A stretch of 64,000 bases of DNA from an uncultured Candidatus Obscuribacterales bacterium (GCA_964541355.1 CAZISK010000001.1:4335-68334), one strand, 5' to 3'. Counted from the stretch's first letter, positions 25,202 through 48,801 are shown. The notes: a model not told the origin generated them from the sequence alone. Program-made: numbers and translations.

Positions 25202-25582
25202 GTGGATGAATCCTATATGCAGAAAAACTCAATCGTGGAAAAGTTTTCCAGGGAATTTCTACAGGCGCGGAAGGGGCAACCGCAACCGAGTGCTCAGGCG
25301 CCCGAGAAACAAGCGCCACCCCCTTGGAGATTTGATAAGTCTATCGACGACTACGTCCCGGGATCAAGCACGCCCGAATACATAAGCGAGAAACAGGCCG
25401 CGGCCCTGGTTGGGCTGTCTATCTTCACACTGCAAGCCTGGCGTTCAAAACGCTACAAGGACTTCGCAGGACCGCCTTACGTAAAACTCCCAGGTGGAAC
25501 CATCCGCTATCACGTCAAGACTCTCTTGTCCTGGTTTGCACAGTACTCACAAAACAATGGAGAACCACCCTCGGTGGCATAG
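25202..25582 (+). CDS. AlpA/excisionase-like helix-turn-helix protein
   Basis: YISEKQAAALVGLSIFTLQAWRSKRYKDFAGPPYVKLPGGTIRYHVKTLLSWF is an HTH_17/AlpA-like pattern. It lies 4 nt upstream of the primase gene. Confidence 0.6.
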   Translation: MDESYMQKNSIVEKFSREFLQARKGQPQPSAQAPEKQAPPPWRFDKSIDDYVPGSSTPEYISEKQAAALVGLSIFTLQAWRSKRYKDFAGPPYVKLPGGTIRYHVKTLLSWFAQYSQNNGEPPSVA

Positions 25583-25585
25583 AAT

Positions 25586-26686: not shown

Positions 26687-27734
26687 CATCGCAGAAAAAA
26701 CTCAATCCGCTTCAACGGTTAGCGCTGCAGAAATGGCGGATGACATAACCGCTGAAATCAAACTTAGCGGCGTCAAGTATCCGCCCAATTTCAAAGTAAA
26801 TATCAATGGCGTCTATATCGACTCGCCGAGGCGAGATGATGGAGGTCAATTCGTGCGTGTTTCTGGGCCGCTTTACGTCTCACGCATGGTGCGCAACCCG
26901 GAGACTACCGGTTGGCAATGGAAAATCGTAATGCGCGATCGAGATGGAAAGCGCAAATTCATTTTCGTGCCAGCTACATTGCTGCATGAAAGTCGTGGTG
27001 TTCACGTAATCTCGATGCTGGCTGACGCTGGGTTGTTAATTGTGCCAGGTCGCGAGAAAGATGTTATTGCATACATCGGTCTGTCACACACGGACAACCG
27101 CGCCACCTCAACCGACAAACTTGGCTGGCTTCCGACCGACAAGCTAGCCTATGTGCTGCCGGAAACGACCATCGGCACAACATCAGACCCTGTCGAGTTT
27201 GCGCCAGAGAGACACAGTCCGGTGGCGACTACGATGCAATCAAGCGGCACGCTGCAAGATTGGCAGAACGAAATTGCAAAGGCTTGCATGCCATTCGACT
27301 ATTTAATTTTCGCGTTATGTTTTGCATTCTCATCAGTGCTGCTCAAATTCGTTGTGTTGGAGTCAGGCGGCTTCCACTTTTGGGGTTTGTCTGGTCGCGG
27401 AAAAACACTCCTGCTGCAAGTAGCAGCTTCTGTGTGGGGGTGTGGTTCAGATCCATCGGACGACCCAGATAAGAGCTATGTGAGGAAGTGGAATTCCACG
27501 GCGAACGCTTTGGAAGCGCTTGCGGCAGCCCACTCAGACGGTCTACTAATTTTAGATGAAATTGGAACCTGTGCAGCGAAAGACGTAGGTGGGGCTATCT
27601 ACAACTTCTCCGGTGGGCGAGGAAAGGAGGCGTTAGACGCAGGACGAAAACTCAAGAAAGCTAGAACGTGGCGCACGCACCTTTTGTCCAGTGGTGAGAA
27701 ATCAATGAAAGAAATGATTGAGGAAGACAAATAA
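26670..27734 (+). CDS. DUF927-type (SF3-like) helicase/NTPase, N-terminal portion
   Basis: Walker A is FWGLSGRGKTLLL and Walker B is LLILDEIG. It ends at TAA 27732-27734, and the next ORF appears to continue the same protein family. Confidence 0.75.
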   Translation: MKRHPSIAEKTQSASTVSAAEMADDITAEIKLSGVKYPPNFKVNINGVYIDSPRRDDGGQFVRVSGPLYVSRMVRNPETTGWQWKIVMRDRDGKRKFIFVPATLLHESRGVHVISMLADAGLLIVPGREKDVIAYIGLSHTDNRATSTDKLGWLPTDKLAYVLPETTIGTTSDPVEFAPERHSPVATTMQSSGTLQDWQNEIAKACMPFDYLIFALCFAFSSVLLKFVVLESGGFHFWGLSGRGKTLLLQVAASVWGCGSDPSDDPDKSYVRKWNSTANALEALAAAHSDGLLILDEIGTCAAKDVGGAIYNFSGGRGKEALDAGRKLKKARTWRTHLLSSGEKSMKEMIEEDK

Positions 27735-29568: not shown

Positions 29569-29641
29569 CTTGCTTCACTATAGTGAAAAGCCTAAACTAG
29601 AAGAACATCATGGGCACCGCCCGCAATACCATGGAGGAATC

Positions 29642-31804
29642 ATGGGATTACCGAGAAAGAAATCAAATCCGTTGATGCAAATGATGCGCCCTCAGGTGGA
29701 TTTATCCATGGGCGTAAATACAGCATCGCCAGGACGAGGGATGATGGGACCATCATCACCAGACCCACGTAGCCTGAGATTTCATGCCGGTGGCGGCGGG
29801 GATGGAATGCTCTGGAGCGGCAGCCGCGATGAGATTTTGAGGGTTCCTAAAGAAGACCCACCGCCGGTGTTCCCCGAGCACACCATGGAGCAGCGGATTT
29901 ACGATCAGCCGTCGCAGGGAATGCGTAAGGCTGTAATGCGCACCGATGAAAATGGGCAGCAGTACAGCCTGCCATCGGATTATATGGACAGGGGGAGTGC
30001 ATCGATGCCTCGCCAGCAACTGATGGATATCGCTCGTGGCGGCGCTGGGATGATGCCGCGCCAGTCGCTCGATATTGGCGGCGCCCTGCAAATGCCTGAC
30101 CCCGGCATGGATAAAGCGGCATTTCAGCGTAGGAATCGCCACGCAATCGGCGACTATTCTGGCGTGCCATCGGATAATCACGGCTTGATGGAACAGGCAG
30201 CTGGAGGCATCACCCGGATGCTCTCTCCACTGCGCAGGATTGCTGACCAGGGTTTGTTTGGTAATGGGCCGGCGCCGAGGTTGTTTGGTCGCAAGGGTCC
30301 GCAGGTTGATAATTCGCAGATATTCGATAATAAGGGGCAGTACGCATACGGCGGGCAGATAGATCCGTCATTTGATAATGCTGGATTATTTTCGAGCTCA
30401 GGACACCCGCCGAACGTTGACCCACGTCAAGCTTCCGATGGCTTAATCCATCAGGGTGGATACCCTTTCGAGCCCGGTTCGAAGGTCGACCAGATGCTTA
30501 ACGGCAATTCTGGCGGCGGCTCCATGGGCGGTGCTGGCGGCGCATTCGTTGACAGGCAGGGGCGCTTGGTTGACCCTCAGGGGCGCAGCCAGGAGCAGTT
30601 TTTCAATGACCTTGCAAGTGATCCGAACGTAGGCATCTCATATGAGGAGATGCAACGGCGAACACTGCCGAATCAGGACCAGTACGCCACCCGTGGTGCT
30701 GTGCAGCAGCAGCCATTTTTATCGAGCCCAGATTTTCAGCAAGCGCTTGCGGGCGGCTTCACCCTAGCGAATGACCGTTACAACCGAGGCATGAATGCAC
30801 GCCAGCAAATCCTCGGTAGATTCAATGATTTCAATAACCATGACATGAATCGCGCCATGGCAGCCGACACATGGGGCAGCATTGGCGACATCGCGAACCT
30901 GTTCGGTAAATCTGGCATGAGCTCCCAGCAGGACTACCAGGAGTATCGCCAGCGATTAAATGATGTCGCAAACAGACAAACGCTCGACAATCAATTTACA
31001 GACGACAGTGCGCAGCGGCAGCGGGACTTATTCTCGATGTTGAATCAGACAGACCCGACAACAGTCGCGAATCAAACAAAGATTGCTAATGCGATGGCAA
31101 ACCGCGACCGCGCAGGATTTTACGGACAGTCGGTTTATGGACAGCACGAAAACACCGCGAACAGAAACTATGAGACCTCTCGCCACAACCAGGCGACCGA
31201 AGGAATTCAGCAACAAGACGCAGACACGCGACGGTTAGGTGCAGAAGGGCTAAGCAAGTATCGCGATAGTTTGATGCAGCAAGGTGCGCAGCGAATTGAG
31301 CTTGAACGTCAGAAACTGCAGCAACAAATCAACAGCGGAAGCATCAAAGCCGATCAAGCAAATCAACACTTGAACTTCCTGCGAGAGCAACTGCAAGCCC
31401 GCATAGACGACAATCTCAATCGCGCATACAACACATACATTGGAAACCAGGGCGAGTTGTTTGGCGACATACTGCGCGAAATCGGCGATGCGAACTCGCA
31501 ATACTCAGACGGACACAAGAAGACGGAAACTCGCGGAACAACCGAGTTAAAGCAACTTCTTGGTGGGTTGCTCTCCGGACAGGGTTCTGCTCAATCTGGA
31601 AGTGCTTTTGGAGGGCTTCTTTCTCCATTATCGTCTTCTCCAAAGCTTCCAGTAGGCGCTCCACAGATGGGTGGCAATCGCGTAGCTCAGGCCCATGGTT
31701 TCCTTAGGCAAGCAGCACAACAACTCGGTGTGAGCAATCTCAAAGATCCGAAAGTGCGGCAGCTCGCCCAACAGATGGCAAAGAAAGCGGGGTTTAGTTT
31801 CTAA
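29642..31804 (+). CDS. large low-complexity (G/M/Q/N-rich) protein, ORFan
   Basis: ATG 29642 is preceded by GGAGG (ccatggaggaatcATG). The N-terminal half is G/M/P/D-rich and the C-terminal half is Q/N/R-rich and coiled-coil-like. The stop overlaps the start of the next gene. Confidence 0.6.
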   Translation: MGLPRKKSNPLMQMMRPQVDLSMGVNTASPGRGMMGPSSPDPRSLRFHAGGGGDGMLWSGSRDEILRVPKEDPPPVFPEHTMEQRIYDQPSQGMRKAVMRTDENGQQYSLPSDYMDRGSASMPRQQLMDIARGGAGMMPRQSLDIGGALQMPDPGMDKAAFQRRNRHAIGDYSGVPSDNHGLMEQAAGGITRMLSPLRRIADQGLFGNGPAPRLFGRKGPQVDNSQIFDNKGQYAYGGQIDPSFDNAGLFSSSGHPPNVDPRQASDGLIHQGGYPFEPGSKVDQMLNGNSGGGSMGGAGGAFVDRQGRLVDPQGRSQEQFFNDLASDPNVGISYEEMQRRTLPNQDQYATRGAVQQQPFLSSPDFQQALAGGFTLANDRYNRGMNARQQILGRFNDFNNHDMNRAMAADTWGSIGDIANLFGKSGMSSQQDYQEYRQRLNDVANRQTLDNQFTDDSAQRQRDLFSMLNQTDPTTVANQTKIANAMANRDRAGFYGQSVYGQHENTANRNYETSRHNQATEGIQQQDADTRRLGAEGLSKYRDSLMQQGAQRIELERQKLQQQINSGSIKADQANQHLNFLREQLQARIDDNLNRAYNTYIGNQGELFGDILREIGDANSQYSDGHKKTETRGTTELKQLLGGLLSGQGSAQSGSAFGGLLSPLSSSPKLPVGAPQMGGNRVAQAHGFLRQAAQQLGVSNLKDPKVRQLAQQMAKKAGFSF

Positions 31805-34800
31805 TGAGTAAACGAAGCATATGGGATGACGCTGCGGACTACCAGCCAGATGTTTGGGATCAGGCTGCCGACTATCAACAGGCTGACAATGGAGATATCT
31901 GGGATCAAGGAGCCAGTTACAGCGCACCACACGGATTCCCAACCACGATGCCGATGAGTTTTCCAGCACCGGCGACAACACGACAATCGAAACCTGACTT
32001 ATTCGGCTTGTTTAACACGCCAGAGCAAAAACATCTGAATCTGACGAACCCAGCGAAATCAAAAGATCGATTCGATCTCAATGCGACGATTAACAGAATC
32101 CCACTTGTGCAGAAATTCCACGAGCGAGCAGATGCCTACCGCAGGCTCGGTGACTCTGACCCGAATCTGGCCGCCGGCATCGACACAGCCGGCTCAATAG
32201 TCGCGGGTATTCCTGGCGGTGTACTTGAGATGGCTGATGCAGTTACGCACAGCCAGGACTGGAACCCCGTTGACCCTATGTTTTGGGCTAAGAGGACAGG
32301 CGCACCCATGCCTGAACTCCCAAACCTGTCTAAGCCGTATCATGACACCTTGCAGCCATCAGTTGACGAGGGGTATGACCTCGGCTCTCTGCTAGGTCAA
32401 GCACTAGTCCCAACAGGAACCGGCGCAGCTGCACCAACCGCCAAACTGGCAATGAGATCGGGCGCCTTCGCTGGTGGTCTGTCCGGCTTGCTTGGCGATG
32501 CAGGTACGCAGCTGCGCAAAACTGGCAGTGTCAACCCAGTCGAAGCAGCGTTCTCCGGGCTGGTCGGCACCGGAGTAGGAGGTATTCTCGGCGGTGCTGG
32601 ACATCTAGCAGGTGAAGGTCTTAAGAGATTACTTGGTAGGGCGCAAGCAGGCTGGCCCAAGGCATCACCCCCGGTGCCCGAACCTATCCCCGAGGCTCCA
32701 TGGACCTATGACAGCATGCCTACGCAGGGGCGTTCGCGCGGGGCTACTGCTACAGGACAAAACCTGATGCAGTCCCTCGGAATGGGAACCAAGCAGGGCT
32801 CGCTCGGTGGTTCACGTCTTGATGACGAAATGCTATCGCTACTTGAACAATCAAATCCAGTTCACCCATCAGGTACTCCACTGTCTCAATCTTCATCGAC
32901 TAGAGTGGCGGAGGCAGCAATTAAGCCAAACAGTGTTCTGGCACCGCTCAGCGCTCATCCAGAGCCCGCCAAAGGCTTCTTTGGTAACACGCGGCGGTAC
33001 ATTCAGGGAAGCAGCGGAATGGACGCTTATGTCGAATTTCCAACGCCTCTCGAAAGAGATTTGGTGGCAATCGCAAGCGCGAAAGTTGGCAAGTCTCTTC
33101 CGAATTACGTCCAACACGTTTCACAAATTGCAAAACAGCTTGGCATCGAGGAGAAGGATGTATACGCTTTTGCGCGAAAGTACGCAGAGAGCATCAAGTC
33201 CGACGTGAAATCAAAGGTTCAGACAGCACGAGCGGCAGGCGGCAATCTACAGGATGTGTATCACCAGGCACCGCCTGCAATGCCTCCGGCTTCAGCGCCA
33301 GAACCTCAAGGCGTATTTCGCCATCAACGAACAGCTTTCGGCAGAAACAAGGTCGACCAAGCGCACGACGTTTCAAAGTTTTCTCCAGAGGTCCAGGCGG
33401 CAGTAAATCGAGTGGCCGAGCATAAGGTCGTTCTCGATTCGGCTAAGGCACTTGCCAAGGAATATTCAGACAAGGTTTGGCAGGCTCACGTCGCCAAAGG
33501 CGAGGCAACCCTCGGAGAAGGTTCCATAACCAGAGGTGGTGTTCAACTGATTCGTGAGCAATCGCGTAGGTCTGAACGCTTGCCTGTTGCGATTGAACAA
33601 GAACTTGCAAAACTCCGAGAATCCCTCGCCGAGGGCGTAGCGTCACCAACGATGAAGCAACACGTAGCGGCAATTGTCGGAGGCAACTTCGGCGCTGAAG
33701 GGCGATTCGGATTACCGGTACCACATATAAACAATGTGGAAGATCTTGATGAGGCATTTCAAAATCTTCGACAGCTCCATCTACAAGTCAAAGATGCACA
33801 AAAGCTCTATGACGCTGCAAAGAAGGAAGCACATCCACTCTTGGAGAAAGCGCAAGCATCGCTTAGACAGTCCGAGCCAACTGCATCGTTCAATGCTCGT
33901 ACTCGAGCAAAGACTCCGTTCGGCGATGAAGTCGACGTAGCAGTTTCACTCGACCACAATTCGATGCATCTTAAACTTTCGGAAGATGCAGAAAAGATCT
34001 ACAAGAAAGCTCAAAATGAGGCCCTCCAACAAGCCGAGCTCGACCGAAACAAACTGCCTCGATACGACTACAAGATTGACCTTAAGAGCCGCACTGCGCG
34101 TGCAATACTCGGGCTGGCGGGCACGCTGGCGCTTGGAAGCAACCAGAAAGCATCTGCTGCTGATGGTAAGACAACTGAGAATCAAACCGACCTGATGCCG
34201 GTCACAACCAAGCTATTGGGAGGGCTCGCGCTCGCGCTCGCGATTTCACCACGCACTGCCAGACTATTCACAAAGGAGCTGGTTCAGACTTCCGCGTTTT
34301 TCAATGACACTCTTTCTCGGGTCGGCGCTCTGGATGCCGCTCTCGGCACCAAGTTAGAGGCAACGATCACACAGCACCTCGGTATGGTGCATCACGCCAG
34401 CTTTGGTCTGCACATCAGCGACGAAGTTAGAGCGCAGGCGTTCAATGTTTTGAGAAATGGAAACCTCAGCGCTGCCGACCTAAGTGACTACTCCAGGATT
34501 GCTGGCACTGTATTCGATGGCATGGGGCAGCCGGAGCTCAGAGCATTCCAAACCTACAAACGCGTGCAAGAAAATCTCAAGCGCCTGTTTACTCAGCACG
34601 AAGAAATCGCACGAACACACATTGATGCACTTGCTGCTGCAGGTAAAAACACAGATCATCTGGAAAGGCACCTGGATGCTTTGCATAGCATGCAGCAGGC
34701 GTTGACAGGTCGTCAGCTAAATAGGTTTGAAAAAGATGTTCGCGGGTTGATGGGCAATTTCTATGACTACCACTTCTTCTTTAATCCTGCATTCCATCTC

Positions 34801-36072
34801 ACGAACTTAACAGACATGGTCATCGCCGGCGGTACCAAGGTCGGACCTATGAATATGGCTATGGCAATGAAGGAATTGGGTCCTGTCGCCCTGGGAGGGA
34901 ATATCGCTCTCAAGAAAATATTCAAGCATTCCAACCTGGTCGGCGGGCTGAAGGCTGAAAAAGTAGCAAACAACGCCGTCATTGGAAGACAAGCTAAAGG
35001 ATTGAAGCTGCCAGATTTCGCCAGCGACAAAATCAATGCTGATCGAGTAGCGCTCGGCGCGATATTCCAGTACGCAAGTACACGTGCTCGCGCTAATGGC
35101 TTCACTGGTTCGCCGGTTGAGTTTGCTGAGAACCTTCTGCAAGGAAAGTATTCGGCCGAGATGACGATTGATGCATGGGCTCACGTGGCTGAATCAGCCA
35201 GCCGCACATTGGGTGTCGACCCGCTCAGACTGAATCAAGACTACTTCGGTGACTCAATGGTTGCGGCTTTCATGGCACCATTCACCAAGCAGCCGTTCCG
35301 GATTGCTAACATGGCGCTGGGATACATGGCTGAAGGCAACTTCAAAAAGGTCGCATTGATGTTCGGTCTCACAGCTCTTGTAGGCGGTAGAGCAGCCATT
35401 CCAAAGGATGCGCAAGCCGCGTGGGAAAATCTCGATCCAGAGTCCTATTTCATGGCTGCATCTATTCTCGATAAGCTGGAGTTGTATCAGTACGCAACCG
35501 GCAAGACGCTTGCACCAAAAGTGCAGTGGTCGCTCATTGCTCCGCTCGGTGGTAGTTGGATAGGAAAATCTGGAGGCGACCCAATCTCGACCACGATTAG
35601 CACGAACTACAAAGATTTCATCATGGGTTTGAAAGACCTGGGAAAAATGGATTTCGACCTCTCCGACCCCGATAGACGCGCACGGATATACCGGCAGCTC
35701 GGAAACTTGCTTCAGCTGTTCCCACGGGTCTACGGGCTGCCCAGCAAGCAGATTCTGAACGGTATCACAAGCGGTGACGAGTCATTCATGAAGGAAGCGG
35801 TGAAGGTTCACCACTTCGGCACATTGGGCGACCGCATTGACTCGGAGGACGTCAGCCTCGATGAACTCGGAATCACGCCGCTTAAGCACATGGCAGATGC
35901 ATTCCTTCCGGGTGAGAATGCTGCCATAGCACAGCGTAAGCTGTCGACGCTCGAGCAGAAAAAGCGAGAGCAAGTTTCCGAGTCGAAGTTGCCTTTTATA
36001 AATTCGAACGCTCCGACGTTTTTCGAAAGCGACAATCGGAAGAAGAGTTTGCTAAACGCACTTGGACTTTAA
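31804..36072 (+). CDS. very large (1422 aa) protein of unknown function with glycine-zipper/hydrophobic segments
   Basis: Uninterrupted 4.27-kb ORF. The N-terminus has three tandem WD.AADYQ repeats. It also has the G-rich hydrophobic segment GLVGTGVGGILGGAGHLAG and a predicted membrane segment LLGGLALALAISP. Confidence 0.7.
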   Translation: MSKRSIWDDAADYQPDVWDQAADYQQADNGDIWDQGASYSAPHGFPTTMPMSFPAPATTRQSKPDLFGLFNTPEQKHLNLTNPAKSKDRFDLNATINRIPLVQKFHERADAYRRLGDSDPNLAAGIDTAGSIVAGIPGGVLEMADAVTHSQDWNPVDPMFWAKRTGAPMPELPNLSKPYHDTLQPSVDEGYDLGSLLGQALVPTGTGAAAPTAKLAMRSGAFAGGLSGLLGDAGTQLRKTGSVNPVEAAFSGLVGTGVGGILGGAGHLAGEGLKRLLGRAQAGWPKASPPVPEPIPEAPWTYDSMPTQGRSRGATATGQNLMQSLGMGTKQGSLGGSRLDDEMLSLLEQSNPVHPSGTPLSQSSSTRVAEAAIKPNSVLAPLSAHPEPAKGFFGNTRRYIQGSSGMDAYVEFPTPLERDLVAIASAKVGKSLPNYVQHVSQIAKQLGIEEKDVYAFARKYAESIKSDVKSKVQTARAAGGNLQDVYHQAPPAMPPASAPEPQGVFRHQRTAFGRNKVDQAHDVSKFSPEVQAAVNRVAEHKVVLDSAKALAKEYSDKVWQAHVAKGEATLGEGSITRGGVQLIREQSRRSERLPVAIEQELAKLRESLAEGVASPTMKQHVAAIVGGNFGAEGRFGLPVPHINNVEDLDEAFQNLRQLHLQVKDAQKLYDAAKKEAHPLLEKAQASLRQSEPTASFNARTRAKTPFGDEVDVAVSLDHNSMHLKLSEDAEKIYKKAQNEALQQAELDRNKLPRYDYKIDLKSRTARAILGLAGTLALGSNQKASAADGKTTENQTDLMPVTTKLLGGLALALAISPRTARLFTKELVQTSAFFNDTLSRVGALDAALGTKLEATITQHLGMVHHASFGLHISDEVRAQAFNVLRNGNLSAADLSDYSRIAGTVFDGMGQPELRAFQTYKRVQENLKRLFTQHEEIARTHIDALAAAGKNTDHLERHLDALHSMQQALTGRQLNRFEKDVRGLMGNFYDYHFFFNPAFHLTNLTDMVIAGGTKVGPMNMAMAMKELGPVALGGNIALKKIFKHSNLVGGLKAEKVANNAVIGRQAKGLKLPDFASDKINADRVALGAIFQYASTRARANGFTGSPVEFAENLLQGKYSAEMTIDAWAHVAESASRTLGVDPLRLNQDYFGDSMVAAFMAPFTKQPFRIANMALGYMAEGNFKKVALMFGLTALVGGRAAIPKDAQAAWENLDPESYFMAASILDKLELYQYATGKTLAPKVQWSLIAPLGGSWIGKSGGDPISTTISTNYKDFIMGLKDLGKMDFDLSDPDRRARIYRQLGNLLQLFPRVYGLPSKQILNGITSGDESFMKEAVKVHHFGTLGDRIDSEDVSLDELGITPLKHMADAFLPGENAAIAQRKLSTLEQKKREQVSESKLPFINSNAPTFFESDNRKKSLLNALGL

Positions 36073-36776
36073 TCCGCCAAGGCGTGTAATACACGCTTTG
36101 GTTGCGGTTCTCCACGCTCGAATAGCCATGCATCTTCCAGTGCATTACACCCAAACTCAACGTACAAACCCAATTGATAGGGTAGCTCACCATTCTGGTG
36201 AGCCAGGAAACTTAGCTTGGCGAAATCCAGCACAGTTAGATATTTAAGGTTGTCCGCGTACTTTACCTCTATCACCAACAAATTTCCTTCCAAGCTCGGG
36301 TTTTGCCGTTTATGAACAATGATATCGGGAAAAATTTTTCGATAAAGCGCTTTTGACATGCTGAGCTTCAGCTGCTCTTCGGCAGTCAAGATCTGCTTCT
36401 GTCCCAGTAAGCTTATAATTCTTTCGAAATTTTCCGTTCTAATATCTCGTATTGCAGCAGAGAAGACATCAGGTCCCAGCGAATGCAACATCACTCCAAA
36501 CTCAGATGTTTGATCTGTTTTTCTAAACTGCTCAATAGTCCTAATGAGTTCATCGCGAGGTACCTCTTTCGGCCTATGCTCCAGCTTATTGTATTCGCAG
36601 TCGACATCCCAATCCGGGAACCCTTCAGCAAGATATTTGGCAAGGCAATGAGAAATCGACCTTTCATTGGCGCTTACCTCGAATAGTGGTTTATCCTCGC
36701 GATAGAGCTTTTTAATCGACTCTCGAAAGACCTGTTCGATGCTTTTCTCGGACTGGGCATCTTTCCATTTGCGCAT
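36069..36776 (-). CDS. PD-(D/E)xK nuclease-like protein
   Basis: 235 aa with ERSISHCLAKYL...FPDWDVDCEYNK and FPDIIVHKR...NLLVIEVKY, a D...(E)xK restriction-endonuclease-like core. It lies 12 nt downstream of the STAND gene on the same strand. Confidence 0.55.
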   Translation of the reverse strand: MRKWKDAQSEKSIEQVFRESIKKLYREDKPLFEVSANERSISHCLAKYLAEGFPDWDVDCEYNKLEHRPKEVPRDELIRTIEQFRKTDQTSEFGVMLHSLGPDVFSAAIRDIRTENFERIISLLGQKQILTAEEQLKLSMSKALYRKIFPDIIVHKRQNPSLEGNLLVIEVKYADNLKYLTVLDFAKLSFLAHQNGELPYQLGLYVEFGCNALEDAWLFERGEPQPKRVLHALAD

Positions 36777-36788
36777 CGCCTTCCTCTC

Positions 36789-39700
36789 TTAGTGAAGTCC
36801 TAAATCAAGTGTGACGGCGGATAGTTTTATTCCATCGGTAGAGGCCGTGTCGCATGCCACATCAACCAAACCACGCACCTCCTCAATGGTCGAATGCTTT
36901 CTACAGGCAACTGCCGATTTGTCATTTGGATAGTGAATGTCACAGTGATAGAAACCAACAACATAAATCCCATGGGTGAAGCAATTCTTCTGTAGATACC
37001 TTTTTTTGAGTTGTGTCTTTACTGATGATAGTAGCCCTTTGTTCCAGCAGCCTTTCACCTCAATAATGACGACAAACGTAGTTGAAAGCGCGGGATCAAA
37101 AGATTTCGCGTAAACGTCCACGAGCTGACCACTTCGACGTGGTTTGCTTTTATCCTTCTTGTCTCTAAATCGAGGCAAATCGCCAGCCCGAATTTGTGGT
37201 TCTCGGCACACTAGCACCTGTTGTTGCACCAACTCATCATCAAGATGGCGCTTAATGTAATCAGACAATCGATTTTCAACTTTGGGAGAGTATCCACTGT
37301 CATTTTCATTCCATAAATCAATAGCACACGGAGTTTCGGAGTGCTGCAGCTTCTTCTGAAGACGGTCCAACGATTCAATAACTGCCTCCATAAGTTGCTG
37401 CGAATCTTGAATGACCCGTCGCCTACTGTCCTTCAGTAGCGTCTTCAGATCGGAGGCTGTGGGTCTCGGCCAAATTGATGCTCGCAATCTGAATTCGGCT
37501 TGCTGCGTAATGCCTGGCAGTCCAACGTAGTCAGGGAGCGCCTTTGCCAAACGTTTCAATTGGTTCACTGAATCTAAAGTTGCTCGACGACGTAGTTCTT
37601 CTATAAGCGCGCTATGTAACTCCTTGATTGAACCAACCGGTCCCCAGCAGAGCGCCGGAGATAAAGTGATAAGCTCCGGTCGATTTGCAATGAAAACATA
37701 GAGATCGCCAATTTGTTCCTCAGACAGTTTCAGAACAAAATCCTTCGGAGAGAGCAAACTAAGGGCGTTAAGTAGTTCCTCGGTTAATAACTCAATTTGA
37801 AGCTGCGTCCATACTGTATCCCACTCAGAATCTCCAGACGACCGAACCAGCATTTTTATGAGTGCAACAACTAATTTCGGCTCCGGTCGCTGCGAATTGC
37901 CAAGCAATGTCAGCACAAGGCGCTTTCCTTCGTCAAAGGCTCTAAGGAGCAAGTGGCCAACTAATTCAACCTCCTTGTCACTGAATTTGGTGCAATTGTT
38001 TATTCTATTCAGAACAAACTCCTCTAATTGCTGCGTCCAGTCTATGCGCAACAATACCTTAGAGGAAGCTTCGTACAGCCAGTCGTGTTCCAACAAGTCG
38101 TCTAATCGCTTTAAAACGGCGTCAGGTGCCAACTTTAAGAGCTCGGCCTCAATTGCATTCTCTTTGTTGTCGACATCTTCTTTCGAAAATGCAAGCAACA
38201 CCAAAGACCACTTTCCCCACAACTCGACTTCAATCTCTTGTCCGCTACTCCTAAGCAATTTGAATGCCTTATACGCTGACATTGCTGGTCGGTGGTAGGT
38301 TGTTTTTCCAAGCCAATCCTCGTCCTTGAGGTCATATGTCTGAAGATACCGCTTTGCGATGTACCTAAGTTGTTCGCGGACCTCATCGCTTGCCGATTTC
38401 CAGCCAGGGTAACTCAACAAGTTCATTTGATGTTCTGAAATTCCACTTCGCCCGTCTTCGTGGTACAGAAGCGTTAGAACAATTCTCCACCACTGACCCC
38501 AATCTCCACTCAAGGCGAGTTCACGCAGCCGCTCCAGCTCTTGACTAGGAGTTTTATAACCCTCCCGTTTTTTAGGGTCGTCAGGTTCATTCTCAGCAAG
38601 ATTGATATCCGCGTCTTGTTTAAGATCAAGATACTTTTGATGTTGACTTAGGTCGCAGTCAAACTTCACCGCTGGATCAAGGAGATTTCGAATCGGGAGA
38701 ACCGCGTCAATGTGATCTAGTCGCTCCCAATTCAAAAGTCTATCGATCAAATACATCGCTATTTCACGGGCTCTTAGCGAGTTGCATTCCGCAGCAAACC
38801 GACACAGTCTCGGAACGTCATCTGCAGTCACCAAAAAGCATCTAAAAGCAAGCCATCCCGCCACATCGAGCGAGTCAATGCTATTCATTGCATTCCTAAT
38901 AGCCTCAGCAGGTTCAATCTCAGCAGCGTCACGGGACTCAACTGGGTGGCTAATTGCAATAATATTGATGACCTCAAGAAGAAGGTCATACCTGTCTTTT
39001 GATTCACCAATCTGACTACGATATATTGCTTCACCATCTCTACCGACCGGAGCATCATCGAACCTCTGCCTGGAGACCAAATACGCTATGAAGTTACTTC
39101 GCACTCTTGGATGATCTAGACTGGAAATTGCCCGGAAAACGAACTCTGTTATAAGGTCGACAAAGTCGCGAGGTTGCTTGTCGATTGCCCCCAGCTTGGC
39201 CGCCCAATCAAGTGCAACATCCAAATCACTTTCTGGCATCAATTCTAGTAAGTCGTGAAGAAAGCCACTATAAATTCCTGCAGTATTCTCGTGCTGTGGC
39301 CGTAAAGCTTCAAACATTTCAACACTCGACAGGAGCTTTGGATAGCAACAATACAGGGCATATCCAAGCAATTCCATTTCCGAATCAGTATCTACCGATT
39401 GCGAAAGCAACGGCTTGAGCATGAGCTTGCACTCGTCCGATCCAATCTGCCTTACAACACCTGCTGCCCGACGTCTAACTGTCACATTTTCAGAAGAATC
39501 AAGAGCGATGTCCGCCAGTTTCCATTCAAGAGCCTCCAGTCGGCACGCGCCTGTCATCGTGACTGCAAGACGACGAGCGGGAATTGAGAGTGTCTCTTTG
39601 CCTAGCAATTCCTCAAGCTGCTTCGACAGTAATTCGTGTGTTAAAGCTCTCAGTCTTCGATCGGTCGTTTCAACTTCGAGCAGGCGCCCGTCCATCATAT

Positions 39701-41042
39701 GTGCAAATAGCTGCTCGACAAGCGTTAGTCGCTTTTCGTCGGTATTGGGCAATGCGTCACCAGATAACAACGCGAGCGGATCTGATCGCACAACGATGTC
39801 GAAAAGGTCGTCGCGTACAACACATAGCCAACTTGTAGTCTCTGCAACCTGAACAATTGGTTTTCCATTTTGAATGAGAAGACCTGTGACCTGCTTGGTG
39901 CTCAACCCGTTCGAATGAATGTAATAAGCTGCCAAAAATTCAGCATTCGTCTTTTGCTTCCATTTTTGTTTCCCGGAACCTCCGAATTCAAAAAGGGCAG
40001 TAGATAGTGTCTCTCTCAAAGAATCGTAGGTTACGTTTACTGTATCTTCGCCGTTAGCAACAGTCCCTCCAGAAAGCTCGGACAAACGCAAATCTAGATT
40101 TGATTCCGAAAGCAGATTTCGCTGATCAAGGTCCAGGTCGATCACGTATTTGCCCATGAATACGGAATAAAATGCAATTCTACTTGCGATAGCCAATCGC
40201 TCTAAATCATTAAGGCTGCTTTGCGCATTTCGATTTTGTTCACCGGATAGCACTCGGCAAAGAGACCTAAAGAGTTCCCATTGGTTATCTGGAAGCTTCC
40301 CAGTTTGTTGAAAATATTGCATAAGTGCTATCAGAGTATTCGGGCTGGCGGCAAAGTGCTCAGCCTGCTTTTCGGAGATAGCTTCATCAAACAAGTCTGC
40401 TTTCAAATTATGCGCTACTGCTGCCAATTGCACATCCGAACGCTGCAGTTGACACAAACGATAGACAGCAATGTGATCAGCCTGCCACGCCGCCTTCAGC
40501 GCAGGCTCAAATGAACGATTCCACCTGGAGTCACGGCACGTTAGTCTTACCTTGCACTCCGCCACTCGCGTGCCACACTGTCTTTGTAGTTCTGATGTCA
40601 AAAATGTTTCCATCTGTCTGAAGGTCAAATGCTCGCATTCATCAACGCCGTCGACAAAAATGGTAAATTCTCCACCGCTCGAATTCACCCAGTCTTTGAA
40701 TGGAGTTGATTCAAAAAGGCTTTCGTGAAGTAGCCTAGGATCGTCTTTTGATCCCAGATCAATAAAAATCGACTGGCGCCCGGAATCCTGTGTCTGCCGA
40801 AAGGCACGTTTGAGCGCATAGCTCTTCCCCATTCCAGGTTCGCCCAGAAGGACCAGGAACGGCACATGCTGAAGCTCACTGTAAAGGTGTTTATCACGAA
40901 AGCTAAATTTCGAATTTTTCTTCGAGACCCAAGTATAGCCATCATCAGTCCAAGTCGGCTCTTCTCCGTCTTTGTACCAAAGTCGTTCCCAGTCGTAGGT
41001 CTTACTGAAATCCCATTCGGGCGCCATGTTCACTGGCTCCAC
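36789..41042 (-). CDS. STAND/NACHT-like P-loop NTPase with a long helical-repeat region and a C-terminal PD-(D/E)xK-like module
   Basis: 1417 aa. Walker A is LVLLGEPGMGKSYALK and Walker B is FTIFVDGVDECE. More than 1000 aa of leucine-rich helical sequence follows, including HEAT-like VTVRRRAAGVVRQIG. The C-terminus has LSDYIKRHL...GQLVDVYAK...FVVIIEVKGCWNKG. Confidence 0.8.
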   Translation of the reverse strand: MEPVNMAPEWDFSKTYDWERLWYKDGEEPTWTDDGYTWVSKKNSKFSFRDKHLYSELQHVPFLVLLGEPGMGKSYALKRAFRQTQDSGRQSIFIDLGSKDDPRLLHESLFESTPFKDWVNSSGGEFTIFVDGVDECEHLTFRQMETFLTSELQRQCGTRVAECKVRLTCRDSRWNRSFEPALKAAWQADHIAVYRLCQLQRSDVQLAAVAHNLKADLFDEAISEKQAEHFAASPNTLIALMQYFQQTGKLPDNQWELFRSLCRVLSGEQNRNAQSSLNDLERLAIASRIAFYSVFMGKYVIDLDLDQRNLLSESNLDLRLSELSGGTVANGEDTVNVTYDSLRETLSTALFEFGGSGKQKWKQKTNAEFLAAYYIHSNGLSTKQVTGLLIQNGKPIVQVAETTSWLCVVRDDLFDIVVRSDPLALLSGDALPNTDEKRLTLVEQLFAHMMDGRLLEVETTDRRLRALTHELLSKQLEELLGKETLSIPARRLAVTMTGACRLEALEWKLADIALDSSENVTVRRRAAGVVRQIGSDECKLMLKPLLSQSVDTDSEMELLGYALYCCYPKLLSSVEMFEALRPQHENTAGIYSGFLHDLLELMPESDLDVALDWAAKLGAIDKQPRDFVDLITEFVFRAISSLDHPRVRSNFIAYLVSRQRFDDAPVGRDGEAIYRSQIGESKDRYDLLLEVINIIAISHPVESRDAAEIEPAEAIRNAMNSIDSLDVAGWLAFRCFLVTADDVPRLCRFAAECNSLRAREIAMYLIDRLLNWERLDHIDAVLPIRNLLDPAVKFDCDLSQHQKYLDLKQDADINLAENEPDDPKKREGYKTPSQELERLRELALSGDWGQWWRIVLTLLYHEDGRSGISEHQMNLLSYPGWKSASDEVREQLRYIAKRYLQTYDLKDEDWLGKTTYHRPAMSAYKAFKLLRSSGQEIEVELWGKWSLVLLAFSKEDVDNKENAIEAELLKLAPDAVLKRLDDLLEHDWLYEASSKVLLRIDWTQQLEEFVLNRINNCTKFSDKEVELVGHLLLRAFDEGKRLVLTLLGNSQRPEPKLVVALIKMLVRSSGDSEWDTVWTQLQIELLTEELLNALSLLSPKDFVLKLSEEQIGDLYVFIANRPELITLSPALCWGPVGSIKELHSALIEELRRRATLDSVNQLKRLAKALPDYVGLPGITQQAEFRLRASIWPRPTASDLKTLLKDSRRRVIQDSQQLMEAVIESLDRLQKKLQHSETPCAIDLWNENDSGYSPKVENRLSDYIKRHLDDELVQQQVLVCREPQIRAGDLPRFRDKKDKSKPRRSGQLVDVYAKSFDPALSTTFVVIIEVKGCWNKGLLSSVKTQLKKRYLQKNCFTHGIYVVGFYHCDIHYPNDKSAVACRKHSTIEEVRGLVDVACDTASTDGIKLSAVTLDLGLH

Positions 41043-41120: not shown

Positions 41121-41336
41121 TCAACTCAAGCGTGAAGCCAAGCGCTCCTGAATCAAGGCCCGAGCATTCTTCAAAATCTCAACTTCAGACTCAAACTCAC
41201 ATTCGTCTGGGTCTTTGTTCATGCCCGCAATAAGCAGGCGGATGCGAATTGCCTGCTCAATGCTTGCCCAGACTTCGCGTGAAAACATTAGACCGAATTC
41301 GGGGTCGAAACTTGTACGCATCATCGCGGCATCCAC
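41121..41336 (-). CDS. hypothetical small protein
   Basis: 71-aa ORF between the integrase and the STAND gene. No recognised domain. Confidence 0.3.
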   Translation of the reverse strand: MDAAMMRTSFDPEFGLMFSREVWASIEQAIRIRLLIAGMNKDPDECEFESEVEILKNARALIQERLASRLS

Positions 41337-41429: not shown

Positions 41430-42716
41430 TTACTGATGCTCCTTCTTTCGACGGGACCTTTTGAATGGAGTGCCACCTTGCTCTTTCAACCATTCCTGCA
41501 ACATCGATTCCTGATAGAGCACCGTGTGTCCCTTTTTCAGATAGGGTGGACCAGCATTTCGCGAACGCATCGATACAAGCTGTTTAATGCTGGTACCGAT
41601 TATCTCGGCGGCACGATCTGTTGTAATCCACTCGCTTTGATATCGCTTATTCGACTCCAGGTTCTGCCGGTCAGCATTTGGTTCATACGAAAGCCCAGCC
41701 GCTTTCAACATGGCTCTCGTTGCCTTAGTCATAGCCTTTCTTACCGGCTCGGCGTTCAGGCGCGCATAGATTGCTGTAGACTCCAAGTCTTTGTGATTCA
41801 GGGTTGCACTGATTGCCGAGATGTTTGCGCCAGTGATTGCCTCCCATGAAGCGAGAGTGCGACGGAGGTCATGAATGCGTGCATCAGTTAGATTCGCACG
41901 CTCCCTGAGCACCTTCCAAGCTGCCTCTGGCTTGGTCAGATGCCCTGTTGGAGAACGATCAGAGGAAAACACCCAAGGGCTTGCACTAGCTCGACGAACA
42001 GCGCGTTTTCGCAGTATGCTCATTGCCACCGGCACGAGAGGTACCACCTGTGGTGTTTTATTTTTCGTCTTTGGGATTGTCCACAGCTCGTGTTCTAGAT
42101 TTAACTCCGACCATTTCATGGCTGCTACGTTCGCGCGCCTCGCGCCCGTGAGCAAGCACATCAGAAGGAAGTCCTTAGTTGTTTCGTACCGTAGCGTATC
42201 AAGTGCCTCAAAAAACCTTCCCAACTCGTCAGTCTGTAGGAATCTGGAGCGCGACTGCTCATCGAATTTTCGAATTTTCGAGCCCGGATTATAGCCAGAA
42301 ATCAGCTCCCAATCAGATGCTTTACGGTACATCATCACAAGTAGCTCAAGCGCGCGATTAGCTGTGTGCGGCATCGGCTTACCTCTCTTTGAGTTTCGTC
42401 GACCTAGTTCAGAATGCCACTGCTGTACTTCCGCTCTAGAGATTCGCAACAAGTCTCTGTCTGACCAGTGCGAGAGGTAATTCCCGTAACAGCGCTCCAT
42501 GTCTCTCCATCTTGCGCAATGCGCTCGGGCGTAGTCTTCCATATACCGCTCATATAATTGCTGCAGGGTGATGCCTGCTGGCTTTCTCTTCTGGCTTTCC
42601 AAATCTTCGGTCACGTTGTTAGAAATCATCTTCGCGAACATGCGCAGCTTCATAAGTTGCTCTGGGTCTATGTTCAGATCGTTATCGTCAGACCTCAGTG
42701 TTTGTAATTCATTCAT
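41430..42716 (-). CDS. int: tyrosine integrase with a C-terminal AlpA-like HTH extension
   Basis: The catalytic region has LLTGARRANV, HDLRRTLASW, LNH and AIYARL. The C-terminal ~60 aa read WITTDRAAEIIGTSIKQLVSMRSRNAGPPYLKKGHTVLYQESMLQEWL, an HTH of the same family as 25202, 54563 and 55950. Confidence 0.88.
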   Translation of the reverse strand: MNELQTLRSDDNDLNIDPEQLMKLRMFAKMISNNVTEDLESQKRKPAGITLQQLYERYMEDYARAHCARWRDMERCYGNYLSHWSDRDLLRISRAEVQQWHSELGRRNSKRGKPMPHTANRALELLVMMYRKASDWELISGYNPGSKIRKFDEQSRSRFLQTDELGRFFEALDTLRYETTKDFLLMCLLTGARRANVAAMKWSELNLEHELWTIPKTKNKTPQVVPLVPVAMSILRKRAVRRASASPWVFSSDRSPTGHLTKPEAAWKVLRERANLTDARIHDLRRTLASWEAITGANISAISATLNHKDLESTAIYARLNAEPVRKAMTKATRAMLKAAGLSYEPNADRQNLESNKRYQSEWITTDRAAEIIGTSIKQLVSMRSRNAGPPYLKKGHTVLYQESMLQEWLKEQGGTPFKRSRRKKEHQ

Positions 42717-43301: not shown

Positions 43302-44240
43302 TCAAGCAGAGAACCTGTCCGCGTAGGCATCTTTCTTGCAGACATCTTCCCACCGCTTTACGCCAGTTGCAAACAAATCCATTCGGCGCTCGCGTTTGAT
43401 GATTTTTGAAATCATCGGCAGCGGCCAGCGCCCTGTAAGAACTCTTATCCGGTTGCGCCTTGGTTTGGTTGTCGGCTTACAACTTTTCGGCAAGATTCCT
43501 TTTTCTTGTAAGCGCTCAGCAATTTTCTTGAGGGTGAAGATGCGTTTGCCGCGCTTATCCCTCATGCTGTATAGCCTGCGAATATATCTGATCACTCTCT
43601 GTTCTTCCTCATCTCTGACGAGGTCCCCGTTGTGCCACTTCCAACCATAGCAAGGTCGGAATCCCGGCCACTCATTACGAGCGAGTTTCTGCCGCTTGCC
43701 TGCGAGCCCCCGCTCCACGATGCGGTCGCATTCGTCTTCATCGATTACAGCTACAAGGCTGTAATACAAGGCGCCTGCACGGCTGAACAAATCAAAATCT
43801 TGAGTGCAACTCCATAACCGTTTTCGATTCTGCCTGAACTCTCGTTTGTATTTTGCGCGGTCTTCAATTGAACGGCTGAATCGGTCGTACGAGAAAACAA
43901 TCAGCCCGCAAAGGTCAGAGTTCATCAACGATTCAAGCGCAGCCGAGATACCATTGCGAACTTCAACAGAGCGGCCAGTTTCTACGTCGAAATAGATAGC
44001 GACGAGGAAATAGCCAGCCCTCTTGCAAAACTCTTCAATCAGAGCCGCCTGGTGTTCAATGGAAGTGTTTTCTCGTTGTGTCTCAGACGAAATTCTGACA
44101 TAGCCAATTACAGCTCCGGATTTCTGAGACTCTTTCAACCATGAAGAAATCCAAGTCCACATAGAGGCACCTCCATGAACGTAATGAAATCTGGGTTTTG
44201 TGAAACTACTGAACGGGCTCGTTAACAACAGTATTCCCAT
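43302..44240 (-). CDS. serine recombinase (resolvase catalytic domain plus recombinase domain)
   Basis: VIGYVRISSETQ carries the catalytic Ser, followed by GLIVFSYDRFSRS, then the recombinase-domain-like RPCYGWKWHNGDLVRDEEEQRVIRYIRRLY. The likely start is MWTW at ~44162. Confidence 0.85.
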   Translation of the reverse strand: MGILLLTSPFSSFTKPRFHYVHGGASMWTWISSWLKESQKSGAVIGYVRISSETQRENTSIEHQAALIEEFCKRAGYFLVAIYFDVETGRSVEVRNGISAALESLMNSDLCGLIVFSYDRFSRSIEDRAKYKREFRQNRKRLWSCTQDFDLFSRAGALYYSLVAVIDEDECDRIVERGLAGKRQKLARNEWPGFRPCYGWKWHNGDLVRDEEEQRVIRYIRRLYSMRDKRGKRIFTLKKIAERLQEKGILPKSCKPTTKPRRNRIRVLTGRWPLPMISKIIKRERRMDLFATGVKRWEDVCKKDAYADRFSA

Positions 44241-45312: not shown

Positions 45313-46344
45313 TTACGGAGTTATGTTGCGCTCCTTCATAAAGACCTTCTCCACCCAGACCTCACCATGCACGCGACCGATACCCATGCTGAATTGCATA
45401 GAAGACTGATACTCCTCACAATAGACTTCATAAGGGAACTCGAGTCTGTACTCAACATCAGAATCGTCTTTTGGTAACGGCTTGAACCAGTCACAAACAT
45501 AGAGAGAAAGACCGGGGTAAATCACAGGATTGGAAAATGTATTGAACATTCTAGAAGTACGCTTACCGTGGGGCGCAAATCCCGCATTGACATCGTAAAC
45601 CAACTGACCACCTTGAATAGATTCATTTTTGGAAGTCCACACTAGTTTCTCTGGGTTGAAATCGTCGCTACTACCAGGGTGAAAGACTACAGCAGGGTGC
45701 CGCGCAAGGCCTCTTCCGCTATTTCTTAGTCCAAATGACACACATAGTTTGTTGCTGGATTGCGTACCGGCAAGCACGTGGAGTTCTAATTTTGGTACAG
45801 CTCTTCGCGCAAACATCGCTCCGACCTGGTTGTGTTCCATCGGCATTGAGCGCGTACCCATTCGAATGTAGTATCGATGCTGATTCTTTGCTGTAGCCAT
45901 TACAGGGTCGCCTTCCGTGACAGCGGGAATCAACATCACAAGAAAACCCTCATCGTCGGATTGCTCAATTGACTCGAATTCAACCCCCTCAACTGGTCGC
46001 TGCACCACCTGGCTTGAGAAACTTTCCATCGCGCTTTTGACTCGACTCAGCTCTCTTATAGGATGGAGGTCTTTGACCTGTTCCGGGTCATCGTCGTTAC
46101 CCTTGGTTGATACGCCCCACACTAGCACCCCACCGCTGGAGTTCGCGAACGCACTTATTGTCTTTGCCAAGTTTGTCTTGTCGTCGTCATTTAGGGACGG
46201 ACCATCTCTATGAAGCTTTTTGAACTCCAAAATATAGCTCTCTGATGCTTCATCGGTTTTCAGCGCACGAACATACTCGATTCCGCCTGTCTTGAACTCT
46301 TCAAATAAAGCGCGCACAGCGTCCATGATGCACCTCGGGCTCAC
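45313..46344 (-). CDS. AlbA_2 (Schlafen-like, divergent AAA_4-associated) DNA-binding-domain protein
   Basis: ESYILEFKKL......NLAKTISAFANSSGGVLVWGV matches the E..EFK...i.k.i.AFAN..GG.l..GV AlbA_2 signature. The C-terminal ~200 aa are unassigned. Confidence 0.65.
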   Translation of the reverse strand: MSPRCIMDAVRALFEEFKTGGIEYVRALKTDEASESYILEFKKLHRDGPSLNDDDKTNLAKTISAFANSSGGVLVWGVSTKGNDDDPEQVKDLHPIRELSRVKSAMESFSSQVVQRPVEGVEFESIEQSDDEGFLVMLIPAVTEGDPVMATAKNQHRYYIRMGTRSMPMEHNQVGAMFARRAVPKLELHVLAGTQSSNKLCVSFGLRNSGRGLARHPAVVFHPGSSDDFNPEKLVWTSKNESIQGGQLVYDVNAGFAPHGKRTSRMFNTFSNPVIYPGLSLYVCDWFKPLPKDDSDVEYRLEFPYEVYCEEYQSSMQFSMGIGRVHGEVWVEKVFMKERNITP

Positions 46345-47949: not shown

Positions 47950-48801
47950 TCACGTCCAAATGTTGTCCGGATCCGTTCGGCCATTAATCACCGAAAACTT
48001 TGTATGCTCAGCAAACCGCTCAATTCGGTAGAACTTCGAAATGTATTTGTTGTTCAATTCGCGGACCTTCACCAGGTCAGTCGAGATTTCCAGTAGCTCC
48101 TTTGATTCATCAGCTTTAGTCCAGCCTGCCATGGTGAGATTGGGGGAGCCGTAGAGTGCAACGATGCCATCGAACACATACAGCTTCTGGTGCGTTTGGT
48201 CGAAGTGAATATCAGATCCTGTGTGAGTTACATTGAAATTCCCAATCGATTGAAGGGTCTTAAGCGCCTGAACCTTGTATGCATCATTCGGCTTGTCGAG
48301 GGGCTCTCCAATGACACCACGAACCGGGATTCGAGTAGCGAGCATTGCAAGAGCACCAATTAACTCGGTGGTGAAGTTCCATGTTGCGAAATGAACAAAA
48401 TGCGAACTCTCTGCCATAAGACGAAACAGAAGGTCTATTGGCCGCGACGCCCCCGCTTTATACATAGATACCCACTTCACCAGTTTCTGCGAGTGCGTAA
48501 GGGCATCGTCAATTGCAATCAGAGAATCGTATGCACCGAAGAAGTCCTTCCAGCCGAAAGTGGAGCCGCCTTTTTCCCAGGATGCCTTGCATCCTGGGCA
48601 TATCGCGGTCTTCTCAGAGTGCTTCAGGTCTAGATAAATAGAAACCAGCGCCACACACCGTGGACACATCGCATTTGGGAAGCGAGCATCTGACAAGCTC
48701 TCGACATCAAAACCCATGTGTCGACCTCTAGTAGGAATTCGCAAACGTTGATTATAGCGCTTGTCGGTGCATGAATTCGTATCTACGAACGCCTGTAGCA
48801 C
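47950..48801 (-). CDS. PLD-family (HKD, Nuc-like) nuclease with an N-terminal zinc ribbon
   Basis: HQKLYVFDGIVALYGSPNLT is an exact HxK(x4)D(x6)GSxN motif. The N-terminus has CPRCVALV...ICPGCKASW. Confidence 0.75.
   Translation of the reverse strand: MLQAFVDTNSCTDKRYNQRLRIPTRGRHMGFDVESLSDARFPNAMCPRCVALVSIYLDLKHSEKTAICPGCKASWEKGGSTFGWKDFFGAYDSLIAIDDALTHSQKLVKWVSMYKAGASRPIDLLFRLMAESSHFVHFATWNFTTELIGALAMLATRIPVRGVIGEPLDKPNDAYKVQALKTLQSIGNFNVTHTGSDIHFDQTHQKLYVFDGIVALYGSPNLTMAGWTKADESKELLEISTDLVKVRELNNKYISKFYRIERFAEHTKFSVINGRTDPDNIWT

Follow-up and report, generated by a model that had tools for sequence, protein, structure and literature searches.

The locus described here raises the question of whether two adjacent genes, one for a large putative immune sensor and one for a small putative nuclease, form a dedicated two-part antiviral system or are neighbours with separate functions. 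The genes lie on the minus strand of a 64,000 nucleotide (nt) stretch of DNA, hereafter the window, from an uncultured Candidatus Obscuribacterales bacterium (GCA_964541355.1, CAZISK010000001.1:4335-68334). A preliminary description of the window had proposed that they constitute an uncharacterised sensor–nuclease system with an unusual domain order and a co-encoded nuclease paralogue. Our analysis points elsewhere. Judged by homology, the large gene appears to add a new and highly divergent member to the known Erebus/Hypnos/Avs10 family, one that carries a putative nuclease effector at its C-terminus; the small gene is predicted to encode a PD-Lambda-3_A-family nuclease, and a new two-part system is probably not what the pair represents.

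The two minus-strand open reading frames (ORFs), 12 nt apart, are present as first reported, and every motif quoted in the preliminary description was found and its coordinates verified (Table 1). The large ORF can be opened at an alternative GTG at 41042 (36789..41042, 1417 amino acids, aa) or five codons further in, at the ATG at 41027. The junction, read directly, is TAA-GAGAGGAAGGCG-ATG, and the spacer contains a Shine–Dalgarno-like GAGG/GGAAGG, a good ribosome-binding site. The G+C content of the large gene (0.467) and of the small gene (0.446) is below that of the flanking genes (0.50–0.53). A word-indexed search returned 91 relatives of the large protein, and a library of 1.84 billion representatives yielded 1515 at E ≤ 1e-30; 654 relatives were found for the small protein. 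As both proteins have many relatives, both genes are real.

After a short leader, the large protein begins with a NACHT nucleoside triphosphatase (NTPase) module. It belongs to the NACHT clade in that both the Walker A motif GxxxxGK[ST] and the Walker B signature D[GAS]hDE, the latter as defined in 10.1101/2022.07.19.500537, are present. In the alignment of 37 relatives, residues G62, E63, P64, G65, G67, K68, D126 and D129 are invariant, which bears out the earlier call of a NACHT-like P-loop. Pfam reports only the P-loop: NPHP3_N scores 26.9 bits, just over its cut-off of 24.8, nSTAND5 and AAA_16 stay under theirs, and NACHT itself (PF05729) is not reported for the window's large protein, being seen in some relatives only. 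A PADLOC scan of the large protein gave no significant match. The helical, HEAT-like repeats that had been proposed downstream of the NTPase also stand. The full family profile (alignment A1) matches HEAT-like alphaRep repeat proteins at positions 470–551 in a PDB sequence search, and HEAT_2 was detected in relatives; the same search with the large protein itself returned nothing useful.

The last ∼190 aa are common to the family and follow the pattern PKDEN ... NREVEIRR ... GERTDI ... VIIEVKGCW ... TQL..RYL. In the family alignment (A3), the window copy retains E1251, R1275-E1276, E1323-x-K1325 and Q1339. In the near-invariant Asp column MAFFT places a Gly of the window sequence; a shift by four residues (GQLVD against GERTD), which is our own reading of that alignment, restores D1304, and only with this realignment does the domain have the whole PD-(D/E)xK residue set (E / D / ExK) on the expected core. 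The AlphaFold2 model, built from the family alignment, has a mean predicted local distance difference test score (pLDDT) of 85 and a predicted template modelling score (pTM) of 0.81, and shows an alpha-beta-beta-beta-alpha-beta core (helices H37-55 and H120-132; strands E57-61, E88-94, E103-112 and E138-145). Its best fold matches in the PDB, found with Foldseek, are the restriction endonucleases EcoT38I, MspJI, AgeI, Kpn2I and BamHI. Thus, the restriction-endonuclease-like core that had been noticed at the extreme C-terminus is supported by the conserved E...D...ExK...Q residues, by the predicted core and by fold matches, the last with weak E-values. A PDB sequence search with the C-terminal-domain profile found nothing and our local copy of Pfam gave no match in the domain; the relatives bear the precomputed accession PF28130.1.

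The distribution of this domain is informative about its role. Of the 91 relatives, 66 carry it, and Walker A lies at about aa 55–60 in 86, that is, wherever the motif could be located. Relatives annotated with SIR2, PNP, TIR, CHAT or hydrophobic transmembrane (TM) tails are without the nuclease domain, which makes the C-terminus a slot for exchangeable effectors; such swapping argues for a role of the C-terminal domain as the putative effector. Candidate free-standing copies of the C-terminal nuclease were rejected, as the short matches came from large genes that had been broken up by frameshifts or decay (L173, L174 and L175 3486-7666), one of these genes being split into a 1190-aa ORF and an overlapping 221-aa ORF.

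Erebus and Hypnos were reportedly described by van den Berg et al. in 2024, and bNACHT64 by Kibby et al. in 2023. In NCBIfam, the large protein matches two models, both named 'NACHT domain-containing antiphage protein': EruA with 172 bits (aa 55–621) and HyoA with 127 bits, for which the equivalog cut-offs are at least 1000 and at least 1200 bits, respectively. Its relatives score 184–280 bits and cover the EruA profile over its whole length (P0062, for instance, aligns 19–1361 with 18–1316 of 1318). The window's C-terminal 190 aa, taken alone, match the C-terminal segment of EruA (best stretch 1153–1213 of 1318, E 2e-10), and the relatives' copies do so over 1152–1316 of 1318, down to E 2.5e-20. 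These copies also match HyoA, within 1283–1425 of 1430; in the same domain-alone profile test the window's own domain gave no HyoA match. Since the relatives span the EruA profile and the C-terminal domain by itself matches its end, NTPase first and nuclease last is the standard layout of the family. This order had been presented as unusual, a view we do not share: the C-terminal effector is a family hallmark, and effectors at the extreme C-terminus had already been noted for some bacterial NACHT proteins (10.1101/2022.07.19.500537). The label 'uncharacterised' is likewise given up, with profile searches placing the large gene with EruA/HyoA and the small gene with PD-Lambda-3_A. Lee et al. 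(2026) treat Erebus/Hypnos and bNACHT64 as one family, to which they give the new name Avs10; this family responds to the HK97-fold major capsid protein and requires its effector domain to kill the cell (PMC12803255; PMC13581612). The large protein is 28–37% identical to its nearest relatives (the closest two, from the 1.84-billion library, at 37% and 34%), and about 28% identical in the sensor region.

The small protein is recognised by PADLOC as PD-Lambda-3_A (E 7.4e-20), in two stretches split by an insertion, and scores 159 bits with the small-family hidden Markov model (HMM). Its relatives, roughly 160 aa long, match PD-Lambda-3_A over the full length (E 1e-33 to 1e-52). The family's PD-(D/E)xK set (ANERS, WDVDCEYN, PDIIVH, LLVIEVK and D..KL) is retained entirely in the window copy (alignment A2). 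The model of the small protein has a pLDDT of 81, and its top matches are folds of the restriction endonuclease (REase) type, namely 3ijm (probability 0.99), Cas4 SSO0001, EcoRI and MGME1; a PDB sequence search with the small-family profile gave nothing useful. With all catalytic residues in place and a fold of the expected type, the PD-(D/E)xK core ascribed earlier to the 235-aa protein holds, and the protein appears to be a catalytically intact PD-Lambda-3_A-family nuclease. A helical insertion of 74 aa, modelled as five helices with lower confidence, lies between the first strand and the PD motif. Other small-family members have 3–23 residues at this site, the exception being P0143 with an unrelated 51-aa insertion.

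Could the small protein be a copy of the nuclease part of the large one? The preliminary description had drawn attention to similar first helices and called the two paralogues. We rejected a specific paralogy: BLASTP found nothing, and hhalign gave a probability of 12% (E 0.0025), although in the profile–profile alignment the helices, the D residues and the ExK motifs of the two fall opposite each other. The two nuclease parts appear to have a common superfold and no recent shared origin.

PD-lambda-3 of E. coli is said to go back to Vassallo et al. in 2022. It is a two-gene abortive-infection system (PMC13190303; PMC10952713). On E. coli, Klebsiella and Salmonella plasmids, the gene after the A-like one encodes a TIGR02391 protein (hypoth_ymh), which we regard as a candidate for PD-lambda-3 component B; examples are L172 4926-5384 on a Klebsiella michiganensis plasmid (NZ_OP378644.1) and L177 3959-5263 on an E. 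coli plasmid (NZ_ON934556.1), where the TIGR02391 gene lies at 4460-5263. These enterobacterial plasmid pairs adjoin Hachiman or a restriction endonuclease. The A genes of the Klebsiella and Raoultella plasmids are truncated, with another residue in place of the catalytic Glu (VLKFKK). PADLOC scans of eleven window proteins gave no PD-Lambda-3_B match, and a TIGR02391-like ORF was found nowhere in the 64-kb window.

Beyond such plasmids, the small family is a portable defence-island gene, inserted into the operons of many unrelated immune systems. Type I restriction–modification (R-M) genes, hsdM or hsdS, lie within 3 kb of it at 22 of 90 loci, typically with the small-family gene lodged between the two and with stop and start codons that overlap, as in the metagenome loci L094, L118, L141, L129, L097, L132 and L171. 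It stands directly after Gabija GajAB in L006 (L006-L008), after Avs3a in L113, after Avs8A/PD-Lambda-4_A in L119 (81-nt gap), after Lamassu LmuB in L155 and after a helicase in L095. In L009 (L009-L011) it precedes an Avs4/PDC-M54A-like protein of 1776 aa belonging to the signal transduction ATPases with numerous domains (STAND), and in L002 it occurs with a PycTM-like protein. The placement between hsdM and hsdS recalls the PrrC-type latent nuclease in an R-M locus.

Whether the pair is a conserved module was examined from both sides. The large family was surveyed at 80 genomic loci, one genome per species, and one metagenomic locus (81 in all); the flanks within 6 kb were searched in all six frames with the small-family HMM, and all positive controls and the window copy were recovered. 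A PD-Lambda-3_A-like ORF was found within 6 kb of the large-family gene at none of the 81 loci, and beside the two closest relatives (37% and 34%) at none of three. Conversely, none of the 90 small-family loci had an EruA-like neighbour. The proposed dedicated two-gene module is thus not supported, with no co-occurrence in 84 large-family and 90 small-family loci. Missing synteny and assignment to named families had been set down beforehand as the outcomes refuting the proposal, and both are what we found. Clustering of the neighbours in the 81 loci revealed no conserved neighbour of any kind ('EruB'-like) for the large family; whatever did recur could be traced to antisense artefacts, to pieces of the large-family gene or, at about 9 loci, to a DUF499-like gene lying upstream. 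Tight operonic embedding is the habit of the small family beside any defence system, and the 12-nt spacing is therefore weak evidence for a partnership. The two-gene STAND operon of Avs8 (PD-lambda-4), whose small second gene is dispensable for defence (10.1101/2025.07.02.662641), points the same way, against a dedicated partnership. Functional coupling of the two genes is accordingly rather unlikely in our estimation, and nothing specific speaks for it.

The reading that we favour, with a probability of about 0.62, is a self-contained Erebus-type protein resembling the nucleotide-binding leucine-rich-repeat (NLR) immune receptors, accompanied by an independent or dispensable PD-Lambda-3_A rider. 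It is supported directly by the homologies, the motifs, the predicted folds and the non-conservation of the pair. The ligand, the oligomerisation, the nuclease activity and the abortive outcome we infer from characterised Avs and bNACHT proteins. The large gene would encode an antiviral NLR-like sensor–effector consisting of leader and NACHT module, a HEAT-like sensor of ∼800 aa and a C-terminal PD-(D/E)xK effector. The repeat region would bind a conserved phage protein, as Avs10 binds the HK97-fold major capsid protein, and this would release NTPase-driven oligomerisation. The clustered nuclease domains would then switch on DNA cleavage, which would stop the infection and probably kill the cell. 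The small gene would be co-transcribed with the NLR gene, both having possibly been acquired together on an integrase-borne element, and would most likely be an independent or dispensable rider with no obligate partner.

Several points weigh against this reading. The synteny data cover 84 and 90 loci, part of each family, and many metagenome loci have short flanks, just 29 of the 90 extending over more than 1.5 kb on both sides. The 12-nt spacer with its own Shine–Dalgarno sequence, and the G+C content of both genes, low compared with the flanks, are signs of two genes travelling as a unit. The small family adjoins three STAND families besides the large gene's own, four in all, and the 74-aa insertion, unique to the window copy, is a hint of coupling. 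As to the assignments themselves, the large protein lies far under both equivalog cut-offs (172 against 1000 bits for EruA, 127 against 1200 for HyoA), no protein found exceeds 37% identity to it, and the Foldseek statistics are weak (best E 0.012 and TM about 0.35 for the C-terminal domain; best E 0.016 for the small protein). With such divergence the family assignment appears to hold at superfamily level only, a distance at which the ligand would not be inferable.

The signs of joint travel and the hints of coupling are the basis of the alternative that we rate highest, though we consider it unlikely, namely a real two-component system. Here, the NLR would sense the infection, and the small nuclease, docking through the 74-aa insertion, would either be recruited or released to work in trans as a further effector or regulate the C-terminal nuclease. 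The shared strand, the 12-nt spacer with its own ribosome-binding site, the G+C content of both genes and the insertion found in this copy alone would all fit, as would the PD-Lambda-3_A-like genes adjoining Avs3a (L113), Avs8A (L119, 81-nt gap) and the Avs4-like STAND gene (L009). What speaks for our preferred reading is that the pair is conserved in none of the 84 and 90 related loci, and that the large family has an effector of its own and no conserved neighbour. The small family is embedded just as tightly in Type I R-M operons and beside Gabija and Lamassu, so that its spacing is typical whatever the neighbour, and Avs8, the precedent, can do without its second gene (10.1101/2025.07.02.662641).

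A more general idea, which we hold to be rather improbable, is that PD-Lambda-3_A-like nucleases are portable add-on effectors or back-up toxins for Type I R-M, Gabija, Lamassu and Avs3-, Avs4-like, Avs8- and Avs10-type NLRs, and that the window copy has become, by way of its 74-aa insertion, the specific partner of an Erebus-type NLR. If this were true, the locus would be a two-nuclease NLR system, or the small nuclease would be a guard that fires upon inhibition of the NLR.

Less probable again is a back-up or guard toxin of the PrrC kind, that is, a small nuclease that the co-encoded defence complex keeps silent and that inhibition of this complex by a phage sets free, with abortive infection as the result. 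The position of the gene inside hsdM–hsdS pairs at several loci, with overlapping stop and start codons, the occurrence of the small family directly after several unrelated systems and the abortive-infection behaviour of PD-lambda-3 itself (PMC13190303) are compatible with such a guard. It is nevertheless an idea drawn from genomic context, and the pairing with TIGR02391 on enterobacterial plasmids suggests that the canonical system has a partner of its own. Finally, that the genes are decaying or non-defensive passengers, the C-terminal domain serving for tethering or regulation or the small gene being inactivated by its insertion, is highly improbable: the weak fold matches, the Gly that MAFFT sets in the near-invariant Asp column unless shifted by four residues and the pseudogenes among related PD-Lambda-3_A copies on Klebsiella plasmids are outweighed by the intact state of both ORFs, the retention of all Walker and catalytic motifs after the realignment (GQLVD against GERTD), the effector-slot swapping in the relatives and the location of the insertion in a surface loop that tolerates one in P0143 too.

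Table 1. Coordinates of the two genes, their motifs and domains, and other features of the window
Feature	Position	Strand	Basis or remark
Large gene	36789..41027	minus	1412 aa from ATG; public protein P0001 identical, 1412 aa
N-terminal NACHT NTPase module, about aa 45-400	39828..40895	minus	Pfam NPHP3_N, AAA_22 and nSTAND5
Walker A, GEPGMGKS	40821-40844	minus	motif, coordinates checked
Walker B, FVDGVDEC (NACHT signature D-G-V-D-E)	40635-40658	minus	motif, coordinates checked
Helical HEAT-like repeat region, about aa 401-1215, presumed ligand sensor	37383..39827	minus	profile matches
C-terminal PD-(D/E)xK-like domain, aa 1216-1411, presumed nuclease effector	36795..37382	minus	alignment and model
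E1251 (PKVEN)	37272-37286	minus	C-terminal domain motif
D1304 (LVDVY)	37110-37124	minus	C-terminal domain motif
E1323-x-K1325 (IEVKG)	37050-37064	minus	C-terminal domain motif
Spacer, large-gene stop to small-gene ATG	36777..36788	minus	12 nt, GAGAGGAAGGCG, read directly
Small gene	36069..36776	minus	ORF, 235 aa
E38 (ANERS)	36657-36671	minus	small-protein motif
D59/E61 (WDVDCEYN)	36588-36611	minus	small-protein motif
P150-D151 (FPDIIVH)	36312-36332	minus	small-protein motif
E170-x-K172 (VIEVKY)	36258-36275	minus	small-protein motif
74-aa helical insertion, aa 72-145	36342..36563	minus	family comparison
Tyrosine integrase with C-terminal HTH_17	41430-42716	minus	Pfam Phage_integrase, E 4e-24; directly upstream of large gene
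Terminator-like hairpin after integrase	41416-41399		
Integrase, primase, DUF927 element	22746-27734	plus	
DUF1156 methylase / DUF3780 / DUF499 cluster	15301-21979	minus	very strong PADLOC matches; known candidate defence cluster
Serine resolvase	43302-44240	minus	
Schlafen/AlbA_2-domain protein	45313-46344	minus	weak match to a protein associated with prokaryotic Argonaute (pAgo)
PLD-like nuclease	47950-48801	minus	

The surroundings of the pair are those of a defence island composed of mobile elements, and the integrase that the preliminary description had seen at each side is indeed there (Table 1). The pair may sit on an element mobilised by the tyrosine integrase encoded upstream of the large gene; the 390-nt gap between integrase and large gene holds a 71-aa ORF (41121-41336, minus strand). 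Neither a tRNA gene nor convincing attachment-site (att)-like direct repeats were found in the window. On the other side, a 744-aa gene (29570-31804) and a 1422-aa gene (31804-36072), both on the plus strand and overlapping stop to start, are the apparent cargo of the integrase, primase and DUF927 element. The 1422-aa gene is convergent on the small gene, and their stops overlap by 4 nt. These two cargo genes have a G+C content of 0.53, against 0.46 for the large and small genes. They gave no Pfam or PADLOC match and, in NCBIfam, chance-level matches only (E 0.01–0.06); the 1422-aa protein has a weak sirtuin-1-like stretch at aa 419–528 (PDB 4if6, E 0.009). They may be an uncharacterised defence pair, more obscure than the large and small genes.

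Further out, the DUF1156/DUF3780/DUF499 cluster is preceded by a 907-aa gene, the whole stretch covering 12581-21979 on the minus strand. DUF499-like genes also lie just upstream of EruA-like genes elsewhere, at about 9 of the 80 genomes' loci and at L001. Beyond the second integrase, the resolvase, Schlafen/AlbA_2 and PLD-like genes are of defence or mobility type. At the second-closest relative of the large gene (34%), a MauJ-family gene lies 40 nt upstream with an integrase near (L179 5112-5960; L180 4242-5090), and a convergent, unannotated 1194-aa gene comes next.

Of the by-products of the analysis, the most useful is how promiscuously the PD-Lambda-3_A family is embedded, above all in Type I R-M operons. 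A PD-(D/E)xK family with intact catalytic residues, so far known just as 'PD-lambda-3 A' is embedded in many unrelated defence operons, most often between hsdM and hsdS. Should a functional dependence lie behind this embedding, it would add a new layer of cooperation between defence systems; otherwise, the pair is a case of ordinary defence-island adjacency. On the side of the large gene, so divergent a member of Erebus/Hypnos/Avs10 (≤37% identity) helps to map how far the sensor can drift and which phage folds it may read, and an exchangeable C-terminal effector slot, with SIR2, TIR, PNP, CHAT or TM tails in place of the nuclease, is documented over 91 relatives.

How, then, does the locus compare with known systems? 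With PD-lambda-3 it shares a small protein of the PD-Lambda-3_A family in which every invariant residue is retained. It differs in that no second component was found beside the A gene, which has an NLR-like neighbour instead, and in the 74-aa insertion. The arrangement of a STAND sensor–nuclease gene followed by a small gene in an operon is that of Avs8 (Nagy et al., 10.1101/2025.07.02.662641), and in L119, a metagenomic Avs8A locus, the second position is even taken by a PD-Lambda-3_A-like gene; however, Avs8A bears an N-terminal Mrr nuclease and belongs to another STAND clade, and Avs8B is without a recognised fold and is dispensable for defence. Like bNACHT25 and other bNACHT proteins with an REase effector, the large protein combines a NACHT module with a repeat sensor and a putative effector of restriction-endonuclease fold, but the effector is N-terminal in those proteins and at the extreme C-terminus here. 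The closest counterpart is Erebus/Hypnos/Avs10. The window's sensor is too divergent for recognition of the major capsid protein to be assumed, and its large gene is followed by a PD-Lambda-3_A-like gene, as in no other sampled member. What the two have in common is a length class of about 1300–1430 aa, a NACHT module at the very N-terminus, a long helical sensor, a homologous C-terminal domain of about 170 aa and a defence-island setting.

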